Shown: positions 1 to 55,471 of the stretch, piece after piece
Layout: every line of letters begins with the position of its first letter
Position numbering within the stretch: the first letter of the stretch is position 1
Origin: an uncultured Verrucomicrobiae bacterium
Lineage (GTDB): Bacteria; Verrucomicrobiota; Verrucomicrobiia; Palsa-1439
Direction of reading: 5' to 3'
Length of the DNA stretch: 64,000 nt
NCBI GenBank assembly: GCA_963836315.1
Contig: CAWIJG010000002.1
Location: 867,001 to 931,000 of the forward strand
Position numbers and translations under genes: made by a program
Notes under the pieces: generated by a model
What the model saw: only the letters and a program-made list of their open reading frames with translations
What the model was told of the DNA's origin: nothing
Database searches by the model: none

Positions 1-362
1 GGATGGTGGTTTCTTGGTTCATGGTGTGTCCTTTTAACTCACACACTTATCCACACCAAGTGTCCACCAAATCGGGGCAAGGGCAGTTTACACTGGCCAG
101 CCACGGAGTGAATTCTTACCATCAGAGACTCGATCTGCTGCCCTCGTACTTCAAATTCCATCCACGCATCACCAGTCCCGCCGCCCGCTTTTCGTTATCA
201 TTCTGAGCCGACGCTCCGCCACGTCCCCGGCCGCCTCCCCGCTCCGAGTCGTTTGCGGAACTGAATTCTGGTTCTTCCTTCAACCTCCCGTCTCCCGGCT
301 CGCGTGTCGTTTACGGAGTCTGTCTCCTGAATCCTCTCGCTCCACACCACCCGTCGCCCGCC

Positions 363-520: not shown

Positions 521-931
521 GAAGCCGGGCGTTGTCCCGATTTGAACTGGCTAAATTCAGCTTCCAGTCGCATTCTCTCGTCAAGCCAGCCAGGGCATGG
601 TGATAATCAGGAGCGTTTATGAAGTTCAGAATAATCCTGCCGAGTATCTACGCGATTCTTTACATCAATATCGGTTATTGTGGTGCTCACCGCGAAGGGG
701 ATGTTTGCGGGGTTTTGGTCAATTTGTGTGACTACTCCCTGGAGTGAACTTCTGCCATTGTTGCTCTATAAACTCTTTGAACCGCTTCCCCCGAATCCGT
801 GGTTTACGTGGTCTGTTCAAATCGCTTTTGCCGCATTCAACGGGCTGATTTATTTCTTTACTGGGTGGGGAATTGATAGCTGGCTGGCGTCGCGCAAACG
901 GTAGTTATCGCACCATCTACCACACGGGAAG

Positions 932-974
932 CCGAGTCCGACGGAGCCGAAACGAAGCTAAACCGAGTCCGACG
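932..974. repeat. 12-bp direct repeat CCGAGTCCGACG, two copies (932-943 and 963-974)
   Basis: Read directly; copies are identical and 31 bp apart, within the ORF-poor leader region. Confidence 0.7.
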
Positions 975-981
975 AGATGCC

Positions 982-5901: not shown

Positions 5902-6828
5902 TTAGAAATGGTGGCCTGTCATCAGGCTGTAAATGATCAGTCCGGCCCCGAGCAGCGGCAGGGGCACGAACGCCAGCCGGATGCGTGTGCCGTGAAAGTA
6001 CTGGGTCAACGTCGCCCCGATTTGCGCGCCGATGGCCGCGCCCGTGTGCATGACCAGCGCGATCAGGATGTCCACGTTGCCCTTGATGGCGTGTGTGAAC
6101 GTTCCGTAGCTCGCCGAAATCACTACTTCGAACAAATCGGTCCCGACCGCCACGTGCGTGGGCACGCCGAGTATGTACACCAGCGCCGGCATGCGGATGT
6201 AACCCGCCCCGCCGCCGAGGAATCCGCTGAACACCCCGCCGATATAGGCCACTCCCAGAATCGTCCACAACGAGATCTGCTGAATGCCGGAACTGGGCAG
6301 GGAAATCATCGGCGGAAAATGAAACCGATGGAACCTCTTGGCGATGTAGGCGATGGCCGACCGGTCTTGCTTGGGTTTGCCGGGTGTCGCGGATTTGGCG
6401 CCGACGGCTTCCTTCCCCATCTTCATGGTTTGCCAGCACTCCCACGCGATGAAGGACGAAATCCCGACGAGCACGATAACAAACGCGATGGCCACCACTA
6501 CGTCCACGTTCTTATGGCGCTTCAACTCCTGAATGATTTGCGCCCCGGTCTCGACCCCTACGATGGTGGCGGATGCCATGATCAACCCGAGCTTGATGTC
6601 CACGTTGCCCAGCGCGCGATGTTTCTTTGCCGCCACGATTGATTTTCCGACGATGTGCGCCAAATCCGTGCCCACCACGAAGTTCATCGGCACCCCGAAC
6701 GCGAACAGCGCCGGCCCCGCCAGAAAGCTTCCGCCAACGCCAAAAAAACCGCCGCAGATTCCTATAATGAATCCGATGATAATCAGGTAAACGGGATGGA
6801 TGTGGGTGCCGGAAATCAGGAAATCCAT
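5902..6828 (-). CDS. TauE/SafE family sulfite/anion exporter (DUF81)
   Basis: 308-aa polytopic membrane protein with two internally repeated halves and Gly-rich TM helices (GICGGFFGVGGSFLAGP, GGVFSGFLGGGAGYIRMP), typical of TauE/SafE. Confidence 0.75.
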   Translation of the reverse strand: MDFLISGTHIHPVYLIIIGFIIGICGGFFGVGGSFLAGPALFAFGVPMNFVVGTDLAHIVGKSIVAAKKHRALGNVDIKLGLIMASATIVGVETGAQIIQELKRHKNVDVVVAIAFVIVLVGISSFIAWECWQTMKMGKEAVGAKSATPGKPKQDRSAIAYIAKRFHRFHFPPMISLPSSGIQQISLWTILGVAYIGGVFSGFLGGGAGYIRMPALVYILGVPTHVAVGTDLFEVVISASYGTFTHAIKGNVDILIALVMHTGAAIGAQIGATLTQYFHGTRIRLAFVPLPLLGAGLIIYSLMTGHHF

Positions 6829-6831
6829 GTC

Positions 6832-7035
6832 TTACCTCTCCCGGCTCCGAATGACCCGCAACAGTGCGGTGGTGAGCATTTCCAACCCAACGCCCTGTAT
6901 GATGATCAACGCGAGCGCCACGATCGCGTACACGGTCTTGTTCTGGTCGAAGATGTGTTTGAGCCAGCCGCCGAGAAAATGGAGGACCAGAAAAAAATAT
7001 GCAAACACGAAAACGGCGTACACGCCCAATTCCAT
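6832..7035 (-). CDS. Small membrane protein (2 predicted TM helices) immediately upstream of TauE
   Basis: 67 aa from ATG at 7035 (MELGVYAVFVFAYFFLVLHFLGGW...). Its stop is 3 nt before the TauE start. A GTG at 7080 is an alternative start. Confidence 0.4.
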   Translation of the reverse strand: MELGVYAVFVFAYFFLVLHFLGGWLKHIFDQNKTVYAIVALALIIIQGVGLEMLTTALLRVIRSRER

Positions 7036-45618: not shown

Positions 45619-46510
45619 GATCCTCTCCTTCGCTGGATTTCGGCACGACCACACGCAACGCGCGGGGCACGACCGAAAACGTCACCGGCGCGTCGCCTGC
45701 GTCTTCGCCGTCCAACTCGAACGGCGTCGCGCGGGGCGCGGTGCAGACCAGACGGTCCGCCTGGAAGTACTTCACGTCACCCAGATCGATATGCGCGCCG
45801 CGCAAGATGCCCTGCCCGTAGCGCAGGACGTCAAGGTAGCCGCATTTTTCAAACACGCACACATCCAGCAGCCCGTCGTCCATCCGCGCCTTCGGGAAGA
45901 GCGCGAACCGTCCGCCGTAGAAGCGCCCGTTGCCGACGAGGACCGCGACGCCGCCGACCGAGCCGCTGCCGTTCGCGGAAACTTCGACGCGAGGATGCGG
46001 CCCGGACAGGGTCTTCAACCCCGCCCAGACGTAGCTGAGCGGCCCGATTTTCTTCTTCAACTCCCAACTGGCGGCGCGCACTGCCCGCGCGTCGAACCCG
46101 ACGCCGGCCAATTGCATGAAGTAGCGGGCGACGCCATTGGATTCGGCGCGGGCCAGATCGATCGTGCGCGTGCGTCCGGTTTCGATGACGGCCCACGCGG
46201 CCTCGACGCGGCGGGGGATGCCGAGTTCCTGGGCGAAGACATTGACCGTGCCGAGCGGCAGGACGCCGAGGGCCACGCCGGACGTGCCGATGCCGTTGAT
46301 GACTTCGTTGATGGTGCCGTCGCCACCGGCGGCGACGATGACCCGGCAGCCCTCGGACACGGCGCGGGCGGCCAATTGCCTGGCTTCACCGGCTTGTTGC
46401 GTCGGCGCGAACGTGACGGACGAGCCGGCCTTAAACTCCAGAAAGCGGCGGATCCGCTGGGATTTCTCGCCGCGCGCAGCGGGATTGAAGATGACGAAGA
46501 GCTTGTCCAT
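45611..46510 (-). CDS. Diacylglycerol-kinase-family lipid kinase (YegS/BmrU-like)
   Basis: 299 aa with MDKLFVIFNPAARGEK and AAGGDGTINEV, typical of the DAGK catalytic domain. Confidence 0.8.
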   Translation of the reverse strand: MDKLFVIFNPAARGEKSQRIRRFLEFKAGSSVTFAPTQQAGEARQLAARAVSEGCRVIVAAGGDGTINEVINGIGTSGVALGVLPLGTVNVFAQELGIPRRVEAAWAVIETGRTRTIDLARAESNGVARYFMQLAGVGFDARAVRAASWELKKKIGPLSYVWAGLKTLSGPHPRVEVSANGSGSVGGVAVLVGNGRFYGGRFALFPKARMDDGLLDVCVFEKCGYLDVLRYGQGILRGAHIDLGDVKYFQADRLVCTAPRATPFELDGEDAGDAPVTFSVVPRALRVVVPKSSEGEDHA

Positions 46511-46579
46511 TGTTGAAGCGCGCGTCTATTGTAGGGGAGAATCTGAAGCAAGCCAAATACGAACTCGTGGAGGCATGAA

Positions 46580-47932
46580 GTGAAGGCGGTCAAAGTCATC
46601 CTGATCATCGTTGCCGTGCTGGTCGCGCTGGTGATTCTTGTGGTCGGCGCGGGAATCTTTGTTACGGATCGCTATCTGCAGTCGGCGGCGTTCAAGGAAA
46701 CGGTGCTGAAGACCGCGCACGACGAACTGGGCGCGGACGTGCGCATCGAAGAACTGCATGCGTCGTTGTTCAGCGGCGTGGAACTGCGCGGCGTAGTTGT
46801 CGGGAACCCGGCTGGATTTACCGGCGACATGGTCACGGCTGAGGCCTTTGTGTTGCGGTATCGATTGTGGCCGTTGTTACGCCGGCGGGTGGAGATTGAA
46901 CAGCTTTCGCTGGACAAGCCCGTCATCACGCTGGCCCAAAACGATGCGGGCGATTGGAACTATGAGAAGTTCGGCGCGAAGGAAGGCAAGGCCAAGCCGG
47001 CAGCCGCGACCCCGCCGCCGGCCGCAACCACGAAGTCCGCCGCACCGACTTCGGTGGACGTTGTTCTCTCCAAGCTCGCGATCGCGCGGGGGAGCGTGTC
47101 GATGGTGAGCGGGAAAGACAAGCCGCTCGTGAAGTTGGATGGCATCAATTTCTCCAGTTCGGTGAGTCTCCTCGACAACAAACTTGCCGGGACGGGCAAG
47201 GCGGGGATCGACAAGATCAATCTGGGTGACGCGCTGTTCGTGGAGAAAGTGGCCACGCCCGTGACATTCGATGCGGACAAGGTGGCGCTGACGGCGTTGA
47301 GCGGCAAACTGGCGAAGGGCACGCTGGCGGGGGACGTCGCGTTAAGAATCAGCGGCGGGTTTCAATACGTTGTGAACTTGCAGGTGAATGACAGCGACGT
47401 GGGGGCGTTTTTCCAAGAGGCGGGCAAGAAGCCGGTGTTGAGCGGCACCCTGAAGGCGAACGTGGCGGTGGCGGGCACGGGCGGGTTGCCGACGATCATC
47501 GGCAACGGGCGGGCGGAGATTGATAACGGCCAGTTGATGGAGATCCCGTTGCTGAACGTGCTGGCAACCGCGCTGCAGATCGACATGCTGCGCGATTTGA
47601 AATTCAGCGAGTGCGTGGTGGAGTTTTCGATCAGCAACAACGTGGTGCAGACGCCGGTCATCCGGCTCACATCGCCGCAAATCCAAATCACCGGGAAGGG
47701 TTCGGTGTCGCTCGATGACCATTCCCTGAGACAGGACATGACGCTCACGTTTGCCAAGGGAGCGCTGGATCGCACGCTGCCCGAAATCCGCGGTCTGTTC
47801 GCCGAACAGCCGGACGGTTCGCTGGCGCTGGATTTCAAGGTGACAGGCCCGTATGACAAACCGAAGACCGATTTGGGCAAGCGTGTCCTGACGGGCGTTG
47901 GGGAACAGTTGCTGCAAAAATTCTGGAAGTAA
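46580..47932 (+). CDS. AsmA-family outer-membrane biogenesis protein
   Basis: 450 aa, N-terminal TM anchor, AsmA-like repetitive beta-rich body. GTG start at 46580 with GGAGG 7 nt upstream. Confidence 0.65.
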   Translation: MKAVKVILIIVAVLVALVILVVGAGIFVTDRYLQSAAFKETVLKTAHDELGADVRIEELHASLFSGVELRGVVVGNPAGFTGDMVTAEAFVLRYRLWPLLRRRVEIEQLSLDKPVITLAQNDAGDWNYEKFGAKEGKAKPAAATPPPAATTKSAAPTSVDVVLSKLAIARGSVSMVSGKDKPLVKLDGINFSSSVSLLDNKLAGTGKAGIDKINLGDALFVEKVATPVTFDADKVALTALSGKLAKGTLAGDVALRISGGFQYVVNLQVNDSDVGAFFQEAGKKPVLSGTLKANVAVAGTGGLPTIIGNGRAEIDNGQLMEIPLLNVLATALQIDMLRDLKFSECVVEFSISNNVVQTPVIRLTSPQIQITGKGSVSLDDHSLRQDMTLTFAKGALDRTLPEIRGLFAEQPDGSLALDFKVTGPYDKPKTDLGKRVLTGVGEQLLQKFWK

Positions 47933-47934
47933 CC

Positions 47935-48513
47935 ATGCGCATCATCGCTGGTCTCGCGAAAGGAATGACGCTGGCGGTGCCGCGCACGGGGGTGCGGCCG
48001 ACGACGGATCGCATCCGCGAGGCGGTGTTTTCCAGTCTGGGGGAGCGGGTGATCGGCGCGCGGGTGTTGGATTTGTTTGCGGGAACGGGAGCGCTCGGGC
48101 TGGAGGCGGCGAGTCGCGGCGCGGAGTCGGTGATGTTTGTTGAGAATGCGCGTGGTGCGCTGGGATGCCTTGAGCGAAACCTGGAGGCGTTTCGGCGGAA
48201 CCGCGATGTGAGGTGCACATTCTCCGTGTCGCGCACGGCGGTCGAATCGCAGATCAAGGCGCTGGCGGTTGCCGGGGAGGATTACTCGCTGATTTTCGCC
48301 GATCCGCCGTATGGTGAGGCGGCGCAGGCGTTGTTGCGGGACGCGACGCTGCCGGAATTGGTGGCGAGCGATGGATGGTTCGTGCTGGAATCAGCGAAAC
48401 GCGATGCGCTGGCCGTGAGCGAGACGTGGGAGCTGGTGCGGGGGGCAGTGTACGGCGACACGCAGGTGAACTTCTTTCGGTGCAAGATCGCTTCGTCCGG
48501 CGTGCCGAAGTAG
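47935..48513 (+). CDS. rsmD: 16S rRNA (guanine966-N2)-methyltransferase RsmD
   Basis: 192 aa with SAM-binding motif LDLFAGTGALGLEA and the DPPY motif (FADPPYGE). Confidence 0.85.
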   Translation: MRIIAGLAKGMTLAVPRTGVRPTTDRIREAVFSSLGERVIGARVLDLFAGTGALGLEAASRGAESVMFVENARGALGCLERNLEAFRRNRDVRCTFSVSRTAVESQIKALAVAGEDYSLIFADPPYGEAAQALLRDATLPELVASDGWFVLESAKRDALAVSETWELVRGAVYGDTQVNFFRCKIASSGVPK

Positions 48514-48579
48514 TCGTGCCGCTTGGGCAACTTTCTCGATAGTCAATGACCGACCTCCTAGACGGATCGCTCGTGGTCG

Positions 48580-48858
48580 TCAGGTGTTGGTCTGAGGTTC
48601 GAGGTTTTGGGGGGCAGACTCGGATGCCTTGGTTAGCCGACCGGCATGCTTGGTCGACTCTCGGACCATCGGCTGCATGAAAGTTTCCCTGATACCCGAG
48701 ACGATTTCACGCGTCACCACCAGTCCGCCGCAGGGTTGCCATCGGTTTTTCATCAACCTGTTTACTTCGGCAACCAGATTCTCAGCGGTCGAGGCGGTCG
48801 CAATCCTGTATTCTGTAAATCTCGTTGGCCGGTTTTCCGTTTTTAACCATCCAGGCAT
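48580..48858 (-). CDS. DUF1737-like small protein (tentative)
   Basis: 92 aa from ATG 48858 (MPGWLKTENRPTRFTEYRIATASTAENLVAEVNRLMKNRWQPCGGL...). The 193-aa track ORF has a low-complexity N-terminal extension that I discount. Confidence 0.4.
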   Translation of the reverse strand: MPGWLKTENRPTRFTEYRIATASTAENLVAEVNRLMKNRWQPCGGLVVTREIVSGIRETFMQPMVRESTKHAGRLTKASESAPQNLEPQTNT

Positions 48859-49783
48859 AATTTCACCACGGGAAGCAGTCGGAGATGATGGTAGCGTTTT
48901 CCGATAAGGTTGCAAGCCCAGGACGGATTTGGCAGGGCGGTGGCTTCGTACGGCCGACATTACTTTCGATTGTGGTCGGGGAGGGATGGCGTGACGAACG
49001 ATTTGCAATATTGAAGAGTTGACCCCGATGAGTGGACACGATGTGGTACTGAGGGTTTTCTGGGTCCGCACCGCGGACAAGGGCCACGCGAGATCGGGCG
49101 AGAGTCCGAGGCGTGGTCTAGAACCAGATGGGTGACTGAACAAAACAGCCAGACGAAACAACCCAGGCGCAGACAGTCAACTCGGTACGCGGTGAGAGGT
49201 TCAACCGAAGAAGAAGCAACGAAGGCTGGGAAAGCCAGTGGAGGAAACTTTTGTCTTGATCGGAACCTTTAATGGGTGCCCCCCCTACCTACCGGGGAGT
49301 GCATATCGGGAATCGATAGTTCTTGCTGGACGCGGGGGTGCGGCAGTGGTATAAGGGCGATAGTTGCTTGACATAAGATGGACGGCGTACAGAACCCATG
49401 GGAATTGCAGATTGGAGATCTCAGAGAGACGGCGAGGGAACGTCGGTTGGGAGGGGGAGGCTTCTACTAAGGTGCTTTTTGCGAAACGAAGCCAAGTTGA
49501 AAACACGTAAGTATTTGGTCATGAAGTCACTACACAAACTGGAAGGTGGGTTTGAGCGAAGAAAACGAACCCAATTGGGGGCATTTGGGGGTGGGAAATG
49601 GGTTCGTTCTGGCAGGAACGGAGCCAAAACGAAAGGAAAGGAGACAGAATTCAGCTCCGAGAAGGATTCGGATCGGGGAGTCTGAAGACAGGAGGTGGAG
49701 GGGGGCGGAAACGCGTGGTGGCGGGGTGAGGCGGGATCAATCGATGGCGCGGAGGTTGCGGTCACTTGCGGGGTGGACTGGCT

Positions 49784-50623
49784 TCAGCGAGCGGCCACGG
49801 CGGAGAATTTTTCTGCCAATTCCTCGTGGAGCATGCTGGCGACGAGCGGGAGGCGTTTTTCAACTTTTTCGACGGCTTCATGCGCTTCCTTCGGCTTGCC
49901 CATCTCCGCGTAGGCGAGGCAGAGCCAGACCCAGGGCGTAGCGTCACCCGAGTTGATCGAAATGGCTTTTTGGTAGGCCCGCACGGCCTTGTCGTACTGC
50001 GCTTGGAGGTGGTAGACGTTGCCAAGGTTGTTCCACGCGACGACGAAGTTTGGCTTCAACGCAATTGCCTTTTCGTATGAGGAAACGGCGTCGTCGTACT
50101 TGCAGCGCGCGGCATAAGCGTCGGCGAGATTGCACCAAGTTTGCGCGTCGCCCGGCCTTGCAGTCAGGAGTTGAAAACAAACGGAGATTAACTCGGTGTA
50201 TTTGCCCTGCTTCTTGTAGGCTTGGACGAGGCGCGCCAAGGCGGATGGATTGCTGGACTGCCGTTTGGTGATTTCCAGGCAGAAATCGATCTGGTCGAAG
50301 TCGTCTTCCTCCTTCTCATAGGCAGCATCGAGGCGCACCCATGCACGCTCATCGTCGGGATGAAGGCGAACGATTTCCTTCGAAAACGTCAGAAGATCGA
50401 TAGGATGAGTTTCGTCCTTGACGCTGAGTTGGAGAAAAGTCCAGGCGTGTCGATTCCCGGGGTGAGCTTTGACGATCTCCTCGCAGAATTGCATAAACTC
50501 CGAGGATTTACTCTCCTGGGTGCAAATCGTATATAGCTTGGACCACGCTTTGGGGTGGTCTGGCTTTTGCCGAACGGCCTCTTGATGGCGTCGTATCAAC
50601 CAGTTAGCGAAGTATTGCTGCAT
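49784..50623 (-). CDS. Tetratricopeptide-repeat (TPR) protein
   Basis: 279 aa with repeated W/Y-x-N-L-G/A-x-x-Y TPR signatures (AWNNLGNVYHLQAQYDKAVRAYQKAI). Confidence 0.75.
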   Translation of the reverse strand: MQQYFANWLIRRHQEAVRQKPDHPKAWSKLYTICTQESKSSEFMQFCEEIVKAHPGNRHAWTFLQLSVKDETHPIDLLTFSKEIVRLHPDDERAWVRLDAAYEKEEDDFDQIDFCLEITKRQSSNPSALARLVQAYKKQGKYTELISVCFQLLTARPGDAQTWCNLADAYAARCKYDDAVSSYEKAIALKPNFVVAWNNLGNVYHLQAQYDKAVRAYQKAISINSGDATPWVWLCLAYAEMGKPKEAHEAVEKVEKRLPLVASMLHEELAEKFSAVAAR

Positions 50624-50737
50624 AACCCGTGAACCTCAACAGGTTCTTACTAGCAGCCTACGGGCCATACCGCCCCGCATCAGGGTTATTCGATTAGCCG
50701 GCTGAGTTCGCCGACCGCCTGCCCGACCGGGGCACGG

Positions 50738-52141
50738 CTATTCGACAATGCGCATCTGAACCGCATTGATCAGCTTATCGCGAGCAAGGATGTCGGAAAT
50801 AACCACCACTTGATCGCCCTTCGCAAGCAGGTCGCGCTCCAGAAGAGATTGCTGCGCCCGCAAAATCGTGACCTCGGGGTCTTCGCTGAACTGAATCACG
50901 TGCGGCATCACACCCCAGTAGAGATTGAGCTGGTTGCGTATCCGCTCGGAGTTTGTGAACGCAAAGATCGCCGAGTGCTCCGGTCGCAGCCACGACGTGT
51001 ATTGCGCCATGTGTCCATACCGGGTGAAGACAAGGATCCCCTTGGCTTTCAATTCATTGGCCATGACCACGGCAGAACGTACGATCTTCTGGCGTTCTTC
51101 GGCCAATTCGACCTTCTCCGCGAAACGCGCCCCCCCGCTGCGTTCAATCCGCTGGGCGATGCGGTCGAGCACTTCGAGGCATTCGAGGGGATACTTCCCG
51201 ACCGTTGTCTCACCCGAAAGCATGACCGAATCGGTCTGCTCGAACACCGCGTTCGCCACATCCGTTACCTCGGCGCGTGTCGGCATCGGATTCTCGATCA
51301 TCGACTCCAGCATGTGAGTTGCAACGATGACCGGCTTCCCGTAACGGATACACGCCTTGACCGTGCGGCGCTGGATAATCGGCAGCTCCTCGTATGGGCA
51401 TTCGATGCCGAGATCGCCCCGCGCCACCATAATGCCGTCCGCCGCATCAATCAGGTCAACCAGATTGACGACTGCCTGCTCATCTTCAATCTTGGCGATA
51501 ATCTTCGCATCGGAATCGCGGGCGCTCAGCATCTCGCGAAGCTCCACGATGTCCTTCCGCTCCCGGACAAAGGACAGCGCGATAAAATCAATCCCCAGCG
51601 AAATGCCCAGTTCGATGTCGTGCCGATCCTTTTCGGTGATCGACGGCATGTTGATCTTAACGCCCGGCAGGTTGATGTGGCGACGGGAACCGAGTTCCCC
51701 CTCCGTCAGCACCTCACATCGCATCCGCCGATGCAGCTTCTGCAACACCCGTAGCCGGATGACCCCATTATCCACCAGCACCGTATCACCTTCGTGGATG
51801 TCCTTGACGAGGTTCGGGTAATTGACGTCCACCGACTTCTCCTCTTCGCTCTGCGCGCCTTTGACCGTAAACTCAAAAATGTCGCCCGGCTTCAATTCCA
51901 GCGGAATAGGCAGGTCCCCGGTGCGAATCGCGGGGCCTTGCGTGTCCATCATGATGGCGCAGGGAATCCCGGCCGTCTCCGAGGCGGCGCGAATCCGTTG
52001 AAACACCGCGCGGGTCCACTCGTGCGTCGCATGGCTCATGTTCAACCGGGCGACGTTCATGCCCCCCCGGATCATCTTCTCCAACATTTCCGCCGACTCG
52101 ATACTCGGGCCGATCGTGCACGTGATTTTCGTGTGTCTCAT
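50738..52141 (-). CDS. pyk: Pyruvate kinase
   Basis: 467 aa: TKITCTIGPS N-terminus, ARLNMSHATHEW, MVARGDLGIE. Confidence 0.9.
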   Translation of the reverse strand: MRHTKITCTIGPSIESAEMLEKMIRGGMNVARLNMSHATHEWTRAVFQRIRAASETAGIPCAIMMDTQGPAIRTGDLPIPLELKPGDIFEFTVKGAQSEEEKSVDVNYPNLVKDIHEGDTVLVDNGVIRLRVLQKLHRRMRCEVLTEGELGSRRHINLPGVKINMPSITEKDRHDIELGISLGIDFIALSFVRERKDIVELREMLSARDSDAKIIAKIEDEQAVVNLVDLIDAADGIMVARGDLGIECPYEELPIIQRRTVKACIRYGKPVIVATHMLESMIENPMPTRAEVTDVANAVFEQTDSVMLSGETTVGKYPLECLEVLDRIAQRIERSGGARFAEKVELAEERQKIVRSAVVMANELKAKGILVFTRYGHMAQYTSWLRPEHSAIFAFTNSERIRNQLNLYWGVMPHVIQFSEDPEVTILRAQQSLLERDLLAKGDQVVVISDILARDKLINAVQMRIVE

Positions 52142-52190
52142 GGGTGCCGTTACTGACCATAGAATACGCAGCGCCGCTAAAAAAGAAAAG

Positions 52191-52219
52191 ATTGCAAAAC
52201 GACGGCGTGAAAATTATCG
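52191..52219 (+). promoter_or_regulatory. Candidate sigma70-like promoter for coaD (TTGCAA, 17 nt spacer, TATCGT)
   Basis: Hexamers read by eye, ~25 nt upstream of the coaD ATG; a GGGAGG Shine-Dalgarno-like sequence follows at 52235-52240. Divergent from pyk. Confidence 0.3.
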
Positions 52220-52243
52220 TTACCACCAAGGGCAGGGAGGTTC

Positions 52244-52738
52244 ATGTTGAAGATTGCAGTCTACCCGGGCAGCTTCGATCCCATCACCAACGGTCATCTC
52301 GACATCGTGCGCCGGGTTTCCCAAATGTTTGATCGCGTGATCGTTGCGGTGGCCGTCAATCAGGAGAAAAAACCCCTGTTCAGCGCGCCCGACCGGATGC
52401 GGTTGGCCGCCGGAGCGGTCAAGGGACTGAAAAACGTGTCTGTGGACAGTTTCGATGGCCTGCTTGTGAATTACGCCCGCAGCAGGCGCGCCAGCATTCT
52501 CGTTCGCGGATTACGGGCTGTTTCTGACTTCGAGTTCGAATTCGAACTCGCCCTCATGAACCGCAAGCTGGATTCGGGCATCGAAACGATCTTCTTGATG
52601 ACCAAGGATGAGTACACCTTTATCAGTTCAAGGCAGGTCAAAGAGATCTGTCGACTCGGCGCCAATGTGAGCAATTTCGTGCCACGCGGTGTCGAACGTG
52701 CATTGAGACGCAAATTTGCTTCGAAGCCCCCGGATTGA
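52244..52738 (+). CDS. coaD: Phosphopantetheine adenylyltransferase
   Basis: 164 aa with the PGSFDPITNGH nucleotidyltransferase motif. Confidence 0.9.
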   Translation: MLKIAVYPGSFDPITNGHLDIVRRVSQMFDRVIVAVAVNQEKKPLFSAPDRMRLAAGAVKGLKNVSVDSFDGLLVNYARSRRASILVRGLRAVSDFEFEFELALMNRKLDSGIETIFLMTKDEYTFISSRQVKEICRLGANVSNFVPRGVERALRRKFASKPPD

Positions 52739-52769
52739 CATCCGTAGCGCTTGGGGCGAAAGGGGAACC

Positions 52770-53234
52770 ATGAAAATCAACGTCAAGCGTATCCCGGAGG
52801 ATGGGGAAACGCTGCGCGGGAGCGATCCTTCCTCGATCATGGATCTGGACGAACCGGACGCCCGGTTCGAACACGACGTGGAGTATGACTTGCTGGCGCA
52901 ATTGCAGGGCAATGCGCTGCTGGTCACGGGCCAAATCAGCACGCCGGCGATGCTCCGGTGCAGCCGATGCCTCCGCGTATTCGAGTTGCCGCTGAAAGTG
53001 GAGGATTTTGCCTTCCACCAGGAACTGAAAGGCGAAGACTTCGTGGACTTGACTGCCAATATGCGCGAAGATATTATCCTCGAACTTCCACAGCGGGCCC
53101 TTTGTACCGAGGGTTGCCGGGGATTGTGCCCGCATTGTGGCAAGGATTTAAATAAAGGGCCGTGCCGATGTAAGCCGTCAGAAGGCGATCTGCGCTGGCA
53201 TGCGTTGGATAACTTGAACCTGAAATTGAAGTAA
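52770..53234 (+). CDS. yceD: YceD/DUF177 family protein (large-subunit rRNA accumulation), upstream of rpmF
   Basis: Start at ATG 52770. C-terminal Cys cluster CTEGCRGLCPHCGKDLNKGPCRC. Conserved yceD-rpmF-plsX synteny. Confidence 0.7.
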   Translation: MKINVKRIPEDGETLRGSDPSSIMDLDEPDARFEHDVEYDLLAQLQGNALLVTGQISTPAMLRCSRCLRVFELPLKVEDFAFHQELKGEDFVDLTANMREDIILELPQRALCTEGCRGLCPHCGKDLNKGPCRCKPSEGDLRWHALDNLNLKLK

Positions 53235-53249
53235 CGGAGAGCATTTCCC

Positions 53250-53432
53250 ATGGGTGTCCCGAAACGTAGAATGTCGAAAATGCGCCTGCGCACTCGCAAG
53301 GCTTCGCACCGTCCCAAGGCGCCGCAGCTGTCCAAGTGTTCCCAATGCGGCGCGCGGGTGCGGCCCCACCGCGTGTGCCCGTCCTGCGGTTATTACAAAG
53401 GCCGACAGGTCGTATCTGTAACCGCCGCCTAA
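53250..53432 (+). CDS. rpmF: 50S ribosomal protein L32
   Basis: 60 aa: MGVPKRRMSKMR... with zinc-ribbon CSQCG...CPSCG. Confidence 0.9.
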   Translation: MGVPKRRMSKMRLRTRKASHRPKAPQLSKCSQCGARVRPHRVCPSCGYYKGRQVVSVTAA

Positions 53433-53439
53433 TCCTGCC

Positions 53440-54489
53440 ATGAGACTGGCCATCGATGCGATGGGTGGGGATTTTGCCCCCCGGAACATCGTTGCCGGGG
53501 CCGTGGAAGCTCTCCGCGACAATAACCGCATCACCCACCTCTACCTCGTGGGCGACCAGACCCGCATCGACGAGAACTTGCGCAACCTCGGCCCACCCGA
53601 CAAGCGCATCGAGGTCGTCCACGCCAGCGAAGTCATTGAGATGAACGACCCGCCCGTGCTGTCCGTCCGCCGCAAAAAGGATAGTTCGATGGGCCGCGCC
53701 ATCGATCTGGTGAAGAGCGGCGCCGCGGACGCAGTGGTCTCCGCAGGCAACACCGGCGCGCTCCTCACGGCGGCGCACCTCAAACTACGCACCCTCGAAG
53801 GCGTCGATCGACCCAGTTTGGTCGTGCTCCTGCCCGCGCCCGGGAACATTTCGGTATTGTTGGACGCCGGCGCCAACCTCGAACCGCATCCCTCCAACCT
53901 CGTCCAGTACGCCATCATGGGTAGCCTCTACTCCAAACAGATCCTCGGATACGAGCGGCCACGTGTCGCGCTCCTGTCGATTGGCACCGAGGACATGAAG
54001 GGCAACGAGTTGACCCTCGAAGCGCATCGGCTGCTCAAGCAGACGGACCTGAATTTTGTCGGCAACATCGACGGCCACGACTTGTTTTCCAACCATGCGG
54101 ACGTGATTGTGACGGACGCGTTCGTCGGGAACGCGGTCTTGAAAGCCTGCGAGAGTACCGCCCGCCTGGTCGGCGGCTGGCTGAAAGACGAACTGAAGAA
54201 GAATCCACTGCGAATGCTGGGCGCGGTACTCGCCGGCGGCGCGTTCAAAGCGCTCAAACGCAAGGCGGATCCCGACGAATACGGCGGAGCCGTCTTGTTG
54301 GGGATTAACGGCATCTGCATCAAGGCGCACGGCGCCAGTTCGCCGAAAGCCGTCAAGAATGCCATCCGCGGGGCCACGGAGTTCATCGAGTGCCAGTTCA
54401 ATGAGCACATCGTCGACGAAATCAGAAAGTTCCATGACAAAGTCCACCAAACCCAATTTACGCAATCCCAGGTCGAGACTGCTTCTTAG
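53440..54489 (+). CDS. plsX: Phosphate acyltransferase PlsX
   Basis: 349 aa: MRLAIDAMGGDFAP N-terminus, PlsX-like throughout. Confidence 0.9.
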   Translation: MRLAIDAMGGDFAPRNIVAGAVEALRDNNRITHLYLVGDQTRIDENLRNLGPPDKRIEVVHASEVIEMNDPPVLSVRRKKDSSMGRAIDLVKSGAADAVVSAGNTGALLTAAHLKLRTLEGVDRPSLVVLLPAPGNISVLLDAGANLEPHPSNLVQYAIMGSLYSKQILGYERPRVALLSIGTEDMKGNELTLEAHRLLKQTDLNFVGNIDGHDLFSNHADVIVTDAFVGNAVLKACESTARLVGGWLKDELKKNPLRMLGAVLAGGAFKALKRKADPDEYGGAVLLGINGICIKAHGASSPKAVKNAIRGATEFIECQFNEHIVDEIRKFHDKVHQTQFTQSQVETAS

Positions 54490-54493
54490 GCCC

Positions 54494-55471
54494 GTGCACA
54501 TCGTCGGCACGGGCTCGTACGTACCCGACCGCGTGCTTACGAACGCCGATCTGGAAAAATTGGTCGATACCACCGATGAGTGGATCACGACCCGCTCGGG
54601 CATCAAGGAGCGCCGCATCGCTCCCGACTGGATGTGCACGTCCGACATGGCCGCCGAGGCCGCCCGCCGCGCAATGGAGCAGGCCAATGTGCGCGAGGAC
54701 CAGATCGATTTGATCATCTGCGCCACGATCACGCCGGATATGCCGTTCCCCGCAACCGCGTGCCTCATCCAGCAGAAAATCGGCGCCAAACGCGCCGCCG
54801 GTTTCGACATCGAAGCGGCCTGCTCGGGCTTCCTCTACGGCATGGAAATCGGACAGCAGTTCATCACGTCGGGGACTTACAACACGGTACTGGTCATCGG
54901 CGCCGAAAAGCTTTCCACGATTATCGACTGGCAGGACCGCAGCACGTGCGTGCTCTTCGGCGACGGTGCGGGCGCGGCAATCCTCCAGAGCCGCGGCGAG
55001 GAATATGGACACGGGATTCTCACGACCTGCATGGGTGCGGATGGCGCGCAGGCGGACATCCTCTTGATGCCCGCAGGTGGCGCGCGTTATCCTGCATCGA
55101 AAGAGTCGGTAAGCGCCGGCATGCACCATTTGAAGATGGCCGGCAAAGAGGTCTTCAAAAGCGCCGTCGTCGCCATGCAGACCGCCGCGGAAGAGGCGTT
55201 GCGGCGATGCAACCTGACCATCAACGATATCAAGTGCGTCATCCCGCATCAGGCCAACATCCGCATTCTCGAGGCCATCGCCGGGCGCATCGGCGCGCCC
55301 ATGGAGAAGGTATACGTAAACCTGCACCGTTACGGTAACATCTCCGCTGCGTCGGTCGCGATTGCACTCGATGAAGCAGCCCGGGAAGGGCGCTTCCAGC
55401 GTGGCGACTTGATTCTGTTGGTCGTCTTCGGCAGCGGTTTGACCTGGGCCTCGTGTGTCATCCAGTGGTAA
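54494..55471 (+). CDS. fabH: Beta-ketoacyl-ACP synthase III (FabH)
   Basis: Active-site Cys (EAACSGF) and the C-terminal His/Asn region (PHQANIRI, FGSGLTWAS). Start placed at GTG 54494; an in-frame ATG at 54434 overlaps plsX by 56 nt. Confidence 0.85.
   Translation: MHIVGTGSYVPDRVLTNADLEKLVDTTDEWITTRSGIKERRIAPDWMCTSDMAAEAARRAMEQANVREDQIDLIICATITPDMPFPATACLIQQKIGAKRAAGFDIEAACSGFLYGMEIGQQFITSGTYNTVLVIGAEKLSTIIDWQDRSTCVLFGDGAGAAILQSRGEEYGHGILTTCMGADGAQADILLMPAGGARYPASKESVSAGMHHLKMAGKEVFKSAVVAMQTAAEEALRRCNLTINDIKCVIPHQANIRILEAIAGRIGAPMEKVYVNLHRYGNISAASVAIALDEAAREGRFQRGDLILLVVFGSGLTWASCVIQW

Follow-up and report, generated by a model that had tools for sequence, protein, structure and literature searches.

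The question raised by this locus is what fills the longest nongenic gap in a 64,000-nt stretch of DNA (the window) from an uncultured member of the Verrucomicrobiia, in a lineage that the flanking proteins assign to peat and bog soils. The gap extends over 1,270 nt from the stop codon of rsmD (48513, plus strand) to the stop codon of a TPR gene (49784, minus strand). Within it, we examined the 925 nt at positions 48859-49783, which an initial annotation had described as a purine-skewed noncoding region, and compared them with 88 loci (L001 to L088; approximately 525 kb of fetched DNA) from related genomes and metagenomes. The stretch contains one copy of a conserved, dispersed noncoding element (49280-49659). 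The best explanation for this insertion-borne core would be an independently transcribed small-RNA gene on the plus strand, a reading to which we give a probability of roughly one half and which ranks first among the explanations of the element weighed below.

The stretch 48859-49783 is real noncoding DNA. As the initial annotation had noted, no open reading frame (ORF) in it looks like protein: GC content by codon position is flat, with a spread of no more than 0.15 across frames compared to 0.3 to 0.48 in the flanking genes; a Pfam scan of all its ORFs of at least 40 amino acids gave no match; and gene callers place no gene in the corresponding region of the near-identical contig L001. The latter represents the same strain-level sequence as window positions 46289-55016 (98% identity over the whole contig and approximately 99.5% in the stretch) and was set aside as a comparator, since its near-identity makes it uninformative; its single-base indels, of the long-read type, split the pyruvate kinase gene into two called genes and are most likely assembly errors. 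A hidden or decayed protein gene was rejected, as the Pfam analysis, the GC-frame analysis and tblastx against all loci were all empty. Those database proteins that do match the stretch are ORF calls without a Pfam domain, overlying conserved DNA blocks only, and no well-supported protein gene emerged by homology.

Copies of the element were found by protein searches, beginning with a chance 114-amino-acid ORF on the minus strand, and by nucleotide profile searches. The first protein search returned a 176-amino-acid "hypothetical protein" without a Pfam domain, on whose contigs 49311-49579 has a 270-nt homologous counterpart in an entirely different context. Altogether, nine distinct copies were found in Verrucomicrobiia metagenomes, in eight gene contexts, i.e., that of the window and seven other, unrelated ones. 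The window copy, with the plus strand as the candidate RNA strand, spans 380 nt, of which approximately 350 are conserved (nhmmer E = 2.3e-89), and lies downstream of the TPR gene. The copies outside the window have nhmmer E values from 1e-26 to 1e-96. In L074-80, the element has an MFS transporter gene on one side and a type II secretion operon on the other; in L081, it lies upstream of fabG-acpP-fabF; in L068 and L033, it is found 1.1 kb downstream of TPR, flanked by a PEP-CTERM gene and a glycosyltransferase-TPR gene; in L083-85, it lies upstream of ispH; and L086, L087 and L088 provide other contexts. The copies diverge by 11 to 35%; the 64-kb window has a single one, and no fetched locus has a second full one. 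An excess of C over G (C/G ratio, 1.6 to 2.3) marks the same strand in all copies; therefore, most of the purine skew in the stretch is a property of the element family. At L074, the repeats adjoining the element copy include a 46-codon fragment (6791-6931) that resembles the N terminus of an N4/N6 DNA methyltransferase (MNRLLFGDNLKWLRD...) and looks like a gene remnant.

The element itself was rejected as a protein gene, as the window, L074 and L081 do not agree in the frame relation of its two conserved blocks, and its most conserved box motif, an 11-mer described below, occurs in both orientations. A small ORF inside it (MTKYLRVFNLASFRKKHL..., or the frame ending in GGGFY and a stop) was likewise rejected, with neither start codon nor frame conserved. 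No Rfam 15 family, 6S RNA, riboswitches and omega/HEARO-type RNAs included, reached its gathering score in the window, and positions 48400-49900 gave only chance-level matches (E = 2.7 and 4.3); at E ≤ 1, Rfam gave nothing in the seven loci bearing other copies of the element, and ARAGORN found no tRNA or tmRNA in the stretch. These scans agree with the initial annotation, which had looked for RNase P, tmRNA and signal recognition particle RNA and seen none, and they extend its negative to any Rfam family and to tRNA.

The small-RNA reading begins with a promoter-like site on the plus strand (49327-49355), composed of TGGACG (49327-49332), a 17-nt spacer and TATAAG (49350-49355), with TG at the extended -10 position. 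In all seven copies that reach this block, TGC-TGGACG is invariant, the spacer is exactly 17 nt long and variable in sequence, the -10-like hexamer conforms to TAT[AG]N[GT], and GGCGATAGTTGTTTGACATA is conserved directly after it. We read the site as a candidate promoter because invariant hexamers at a fixed spacing around a variable spacer form a comparative promoter signature. Just upstream of the -35-like hexamer lies the palindrome ATATCG-N5-CGATA (49303-49318, plus strand), a possible regulator binding site that is kept as TATCG-N5-(C/T)GATA in six of the seven copies, the L074 version being degenerate and shifted. A promoter scan that requires -35 and -10 hexamers 16 to 18 nt apart, with A2 and T6 in the -10 hexamer, called the homologous sites in L083 (TATAAT, 10/12) and L086 (TATGAT, 9/12, plus TG).

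From these signals, i.e., the palindromic operator and a sigma-70-type promoter (TGGACG-N17-TATAAG), an RNA would start near 49362 and run rightward, pass through a variable middle into a conserved 3' domain, and end in or just after a nested hairpin (49547-49627), at approximately 49610-49630, for a length of approximately 250 to 270 nt. We infer transcription of the element, both ends of this RNA and any function that it may have from the sequence comparison. As delimited by block conservation, the candidate RNA (49362-49630, plus strand) is associated with a conserved 5' segment that runs from 49356 (GGCGATAGTTGCTTGACATAAG), followed by the variable middle (approximately 49378-49443), which measures approximately 10 to 190 nt across copies and in the L088 copy contains an inserted unit of repetitive extragenic palindromic (REP)-like type. 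The conserved 3' domain (49444-49630) carries three copies of the box AAACGAA[GC]CCAA (49484-49495, 49562-49574 and 49616-49627, all on the plus strand) and two copies of its complement. The orientation of the candidate RNA, co-directional with the next gene in five of the eight contexts and convergent with it in three, fits a free-standing gene.

The 11-nt box occurs more than 20 times in the fetched DNA, compared to 0.84 occurrences expected, and always in intergenic clusters. In six related species, arrays of it (TGG[GC]TTCGTTT) that lack the promoter block precede the pyruvate kinase gene (L009, approximately 710-860; L013, 3900-4370; L015, 2070-2210; L037, 1198-1349; L043, 1030-1165; and L044, 939-1370), and a perfect 14-bp box palindrome is present in L037 and L043; the region upstream of the window's own pyruvate kinase gene (52142-52243) has no box arrays. 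Two adjacent box copies (GGCTTCGTTCGAGGAAAAATTGGGTTCGTTTCGCAAAAAA) are present in noncoding DNA at 4190-4235 of L082, an IMG/VR contig classed as viral, from which the rest of the element is absent. Readings of the box as a sigma-54, ECF-sigma, LexA, Cra, LacI-family or DnaA-box site were compared by eye and rejected, as none fits its spacing or sequence.

The nested hairpin on the plus strand appears to be the comparatively best-supported structure of the element, with modest support. Its outer helix would pair 49547-49556 with 49617-49626 and its inner helix, a 13-bp inverted repeat, 49562-49574 with 49596-49608, enclosing an apical loop that varies between copies. Across eight copies, 85% of cells are paired compared to 80% in shuffles (0 of 500 reach 85%), and the covariation score is 0.229 compared to 0.155 in shuffles (exceeded by 3 of 500), with five pairs showing changes on both sides. 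Slid controls gave no more than 57% pairing, and G-U pairs number 13 on the plus strand and 1 on the minus strand. An alternative model with two tight hairpins did no better than shuffles and was rejected. The check for G-quadruplexes that the initial annotation had proposed yielded one canonical motif in the stretch (49577-49602, plus strand; one of three in the window by a regular-expression scan), which lies in the apical loop and is probably incidental because the loop sequence is not conserved in the other copies of the element. A G-quadruplex element and a GGAGG-based idea resembling ribosome-binding sites were both rejected, as the counts follow composition and the single motif is not conserved.

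Several points weigh against a small RNA. The window's -10 hexamer ends in G and fails the T6 rule of the promoter scan, which reported no promoter there. G-richness by itself could account for the G-U asymmetry; the hairpin positions are mostly invariant and hence little informative, the sequences number eight, and related sequences can beat such shuffles without real structure. The covariation term of RNAalifold is positive, i.e., penalizing, on both strands, and the folding of the predicted window RNA is no more stable than that of shuffles (z = +0.24; the L074 copy has z = -4.0). No clean U-tract follows the full hairpin, which leaves the 3' end undefined. Box arrays that are partial and lack the promoter block precede pyruvate kinase in related species, and the five alternating complementary boxes could equally be sites of protein binding on DNA. 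That the element is expressed as a small RNA from the plus strand falls, in our estimate, slightly below an even chance. The uncharacterized noncoding RNA suggested by the initial annotation survives as a candidate for approximately 270 to 380 nt only, at 49280-49659; the whole 925 nt show no excess folding energy (z = -0.87 on the plus strand and +0.03 on the minus strand), and a structured RNA of the whole region was rejected on these values.

Among known systems, the element resembles free-standing bacterial small-RNA genes in being intergenic and noncoding, in its promoter-like hexamers at fixed spacing and distal conserved hairpin, in having conserved blocks that flank an insertion-tolerant variable middle, and in an orientation independent of its neighbors. 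It differs from them in the modest support for its structure, in having no clean hairpin-plus-U-tract terminator and no Rfam match, and in that it is not syntenic among close species, which is unusual for core small RNAs. With sponge RNAs of the CsrB/RsmZ type, it has in common a purine-rich candidate RNA with a repeated short motif, present in three box copies; however, the repeated box is AAACGAA[GC]CCAA rather than GGA, and three copies are few. A CsrB-like sponge RNA was rejected, as GGA (36 compared to 38.6 ± 4.1 expected) and ANGGA (8 compared to 9.9 ± 3.0) occur as dinucleotide composition predicts. A more ambitious version of the small-RNA reading, which we regard as improbable, joins operator, promoter, small RNA and long hairpin into one relocatable and self-contained cassette for a regulatory RNA, i.e., a mobile gene for a trans-acting small RNA. 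Such a cassette would move among loci and genomes of peat Verrucomicrobiia along with repeat clusters of the REP/RAYT type, and its three AAACGAA[GC]CCAA boxes would serve to titrate a protein or to base-pair with a group of mRNAs.

The element may instead be a non-autonomous mobile or recombination-spread intergenic repeat (ERIC/IRU-like, BIME-like, or palindrome-associated and mobilized in trans) with no RNA function of its own, the stretch being accumulated selfish or junk DNA at a permissive 3'-end-to-3'-end junction; we consider this unlikely. It would account for the presence of the same element in unrelated gene contexts and for the TPR locus of the closest relative (L032), which lacks the element although its metagenome (Ga0116116) also yielded a copy in another context (L077). 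In other loci, the element is embedded among REP-like "GTAG + hairpin" units, its promoter-side end abuts a GTAG unit in four or five copies, a RAYT-like Y1 transposase gene adjoins a partial copy in L037, and the 3' flank of TPR is a hotspot whose cargo differs from one close relative to the next. Verrucomicrobia are documented to have GTAG REPs (PMC3733652). The REP-like units crowd intergenic DNA at L037 325-819, L074 6480-6760, L081 4650-4960 and 5360-5747, and L013 3990-4270, and the L037 transposase gene (motifs DHLHAIL and NYILMNPV) is itself apparently interrupted by a REP-like insert. REP, REPIN and BIME elements, reportedly mobilized by RAYT transposases (Nunvar 2010; Bertels and Rainey 2011; Di Nocera 2013, PMC3733652), are matched by our element in its extragenic position between 3'-facing gene ends and in its palindrome, and in related loci by the surrounding GTAG-tagged hairpins and the nearby RAYT-like gene, which was seen only in L037. 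REPs, however, are 20 to 40 bp long, GTAG-tagged and present in tens to thousands of copies, whereas the element is approximately 350 bp long and has a copy number of one in the 64-kb window. REP/REPIN membership was rejected, as the hairpin arms (CGAACCCA and TGGGTTCG) bear no GTAG tag and enclose a loop of 19 to 50 nt, and a scan for GTAG plus hairpin found no cluster in 48514-49783. The ERIC/IRU units of enterobacteria are longer than 100 bp, form an imperfect long palindrome, lie in transcribed intergenic regions and contain a variable internal insertion. The element is like them in length, imperfect long palindrome, intergenic location and variable internal insertion, and unlike them in that it comes from another phylum, has no sequence similarity to them, contains a conserved internal promoter-like site where ERIC has no conserved internal promoter, and appears to be low in copy number. 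A miniature inverted-repeat transposable element or an insertion sequence derivative was rejected, as no inverted repeat joins the element borders, homology fades gradually and the flanks differ between copies; the 7-bp direct repeat at this locus flanks a small-gene cassette (see below), not the element. Against any mobile repeat stand the lack of terminal inverted repeats or a target-site duplication at the element borders, the single copy in 64 kb with no second full copy in any fetched locus, the divergence between copies, hence no recent burst, a hairpin without the GTAG tag, and the strict 17-nt hexamer spacing and the upstream palindrome, which are unexpected for a passive repeat.

A further reading, more doubtful than a mobile repeat, places the function of the element at the DNA level: a portable regulatory cassette whose promoter, operator and five alternating 11- to 12-bp protein-binding boxes would control the downstream gene, with the hairpin as leader or attenuator. 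In five of the eight contexts, the promoter-like site indeed points at a gene start 130 to 370 nt past the hairpin, the genes being that for the MFS transporter, fabG, ispH, a partial 83-amino-acid ORF and a 748-amino-acid ORF. The box is invariant even where its pairing partner is mutated (L083), which argues for constraint on sequence rather than on pairing, and the promoter-less arrays upstream of pyruvate kinase in six related species and the perfect 14-bp box palindrome in L037 and L043 speak for this reading as well. However, in the window, L068/L033 and L088, what the promoter-like site faces is the 3' end of a convergent gene, which leaves it no gene to regulate; the downstream genes have no function in common; and double-stranded binding sites do not explain a strand-asymmetric composition. 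Least probable among the rivals is that the stretch is the long 3' untranslated region (UTR) and terminator zone of a pyruvate kinase-TPR operon on the minus strand, in which a C-rich, G-poor, unstructured tract would load Rho and the hairpin 49608-49564, followed by UUUUCUUCG, would pause or terminate RNA polymerase. The minus strand after TPR does resemble Rho-dependent terminator regions in being C-rich and G-poor and then forming a hairpin: within 300 nt of the TPR stop, its C/G ratio is 2.4 to 3.4, which ranks in the top 1% among all 78-nt windows, the first 144 nt are ordinary, with low folding energy, and a U-rich run comes after the hairpin (-19.5 kcal/mol; z = -3.4). In all close relatives, too, the 80 nt that directly follow TPR are C-rich, with a C/G ratio of 2.7 in the window and 1.5 to 2.2 in the relatives. 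Yet this explanation covers no more than 220 of the 925 nt, and the operon manages with a 3' flank of approximately 20 nt in 45 related loci. A loop of 25 nt departs from the usual form of intrinsic terminators, in which a G+C-rich stem with a loop of 3 to 8 nt leads directly into a U-run, and the scan did not call one. An intrinsic terminator was rejected, as 49564-49608 is reported on neither strand, the loop measures 19 to 25 nt and an interrupted U-rich run occurs on the minus strand only. In addition, the hairpin and the C-rich composition travel with the element to L074, L081 and L083, where no gene lies upstream in that direction; they are therefore properties of the element, not of TPR, and the skew here, unlike that of Rho-dependent regions, spans approximately 900 nt and goes with a transposable or translocated element, not with the operon. 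The long 3' UTR offered by the initial annotation is plausible for the approximately 55 nt beside TPR that relatives have in common, and not for the remainder of the stretch.

By comparison of loci, the 1.27-kb interval 48514-49783 that contains the element is a lineage-specific insertion and not ancestral DNA. Orthologous loci were fetched via the TPR protein, 17 of them genomic and 40 metagenomic. The distance between the ends of the TPR and rsmD alignments is -18 to +64 nt in 45 of these, compared to 1,273 to 1,333 nt in the window; since the two genes abut in these 45 loci, the whole interval is specific to this lineage. The presence-or-absence comparison by BLASTN that the initial annotation had recommended thus revealed island-like behavior, and its notion of a decayed mobile or phage remnant is supported for the block as a whole, which is absent from the 45 loci and carries a gene of a phage-associated family. 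A phage or plasmid origin was nonetheless rejected, as the 1.27-kb insertion has no blastn match in phages or plasmids and no viral contig contains the small gene or an element 33-mer; a single viral contig has the 20-nt box and nothing else of the element. The insertion is a mosaic, not one functional unit, and it is very probable that we are dealing with a noncoding mosaic insertion containing a conserved dispersed element. The rest would be filler, made up of the trailer of TPR, a spacer rich in C, orphan DNA (360 nt) and the DUF1737-like cassette, which apparently was inserted separately.

The closest relatives (TPR 93 to 98% identical; L003/L031/L032, L033, L068 and L070) are also without TPR-rsmD adjacency. 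Their cargo after TPR differs by lineage, consisting of a PEP-CTERM protein, a 403-amino-acid Gly-rich repeat protein or a glycosyltransferase-like membrane protein of 776 amino acids whose C terminus carries TPRs, and they have in common with the window only the first 24 to 55 nt after the TPR stop. Because close relatives carry differing cargo there, the 3' flank of TPR is a local rearrangement hotspot in this subclade.

The remaining parts of the interval were traced individually. Next to TPR lies a trailer (49728-49783, minus strand), C-rich on the transcribed strand and 78% identical to L003/L031/L032, beyond which synteny breaks. To the left of the element, approximately 360 nt of orphan noncoding DNA (48929-49279) have no coding signal, and blastn and tblastx against the 88 loci, phages and plasmids gave no homolog. 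The spacer between the rsmD stop and the small-gene cassette (48514-48557) belongs to the lineage-specific interval, as relatives align to rsmD only to approximately 48480-48497, and no homolog of it was found. A 48-nt motif, CTCCCCGNTCCGA...CGGANCTGAATTCTG, at 49633-49680 on the minus strand recurs at window positions 235-280 on the plus strand, with a local alignment score of 45 compared to 22.6 ± 2.5 in shuffles and two occurrences of the pattern in the window compared to 0.00 expected; it is absent from the other fetched loci. Its second copy sits in a pyrimidine-skewed noncoding region of the window. This region (23-618; approximately 600 nt) is a second noncoding stretch with mirror-image skew, 68% pyrimidine and 43% C on the plus strand at 160-360, flanked by the start of a minus-strand gene (approximately 22) and by small plus-strand ORFs from 619. 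Another motif, GAAGCCGAGTC[CG]GACGAG, is found in noncoding DNA at window positions 915-980, L074 6536-6556 and L081 4801-4843 and in the variable region of the L088 element copy, and may represent another dispersed repeat family.

The small-gene cassette (48558-48921, minus strand) contains an ORF of 92 amino acids (48580-48858) of a divergent DUF1737/phrog_143 family. The protein has 14 database homologs, mostly of 81 amino acids, and is called as a gene in two near-identical contigs. The canonical start codon, ATG in the 81-amino-acid homologs, is ACG in the window, where an in-frame ATG 11 codons upstream is used; a conserved stretch upstream of the gene (48882-48921) contains TTGCAA-N16-TACCAT. 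All 14 family members are matched by phrog_143 (best E, 5.7e-6), and 12 of the 14 are matched by DUF1737 (PF08410) below threshold (best E, 5.5e-4). The window protein itself scores 13.6 bits against PF08410 (E = 0.061), short of the gathering score of 24 bits, and at most it would be a distant DUF1737 relative. The cassette DNA block recurs at 79 to 86% identity in at least four unrelated contexts (L023-L030). A 7-bp direct repeat, GACGGAT, occurs on the plus strand at 48561-48567, inside the homology with L025, and at 48922-48928, just outside it; by our rough estimate, a pair of this kind would fall within 10 nt of both cassette borders by chance in approximately 2% of cases. Since this repeat marks both edges of the cassette, the data suggest that the cassette arrived by a separate insertion event. 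The small gene also alters the description of the stretch as lying between convergent genes. The stretch is downstream of TPR, as described, but upstream of the small gene; it is not directly between convergent genes because its left border (48858) is the start codon of the small gene, and the convergent pair here is rsmD and the small minus-strand gene, not rsmD and TPR.

The base composition of the stretch is largely as first described. The strong purine skew of the plus strand was borne out, with 62% purine over the whole stretch and 65 to 67% at 49351-49850 compared to a window mean of 48.9% (standard deviation, 4.4); the only 300-nt windows in the 64 kb that deviate by more than 0.13 in purine content fall at 49351-49850. 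The claim of lower GC than in the flanks holds on one side: at 0.55, the stretch is below the rsmD side (0.62 to 0.65; rsmD itself, approximately 0.64) and equal to the TPR gene (0.52 to 0.57). The GGAGG and GGGG blocks are indeed 7 to 10 times denser in the stretch than elsewhere in the window, but their counts carry no signal beyond base composition; their density arises because a purine-rich composition predicts such blocks, with 16 GGGG compared to 16.0 expected and 7 GGAGG compared to 3.9 ± 2.0 in mononucleotide and 4.5 ± 1.9 in dinucleotide shuffles.

Altogether, one third of the stretch is a candidate for a new noncoding RNA or element family, and the remainder is unremarkable. To our knowledge, regulatory RNAs are hardly characterized in Verrucomicrobiota, and the peat and bog lineages concerned are uncultured; an element that is absent from Rfam and has a comparatively well-supported candidate promoter and hairpin offers a concrete and cheap target, to which existing SPRUCE and Stordalen metatranscriptomes and a covariance-model survey could be applied. 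Were the element only a repeat, the finding would be an ordinary one, i.e., a strain-specific insertion where the 3' ends of two genes meet. Its link to REP-like clusters and to a rearrangement hotspot bears on how noncoding DNA may be shuffled in these genomes.

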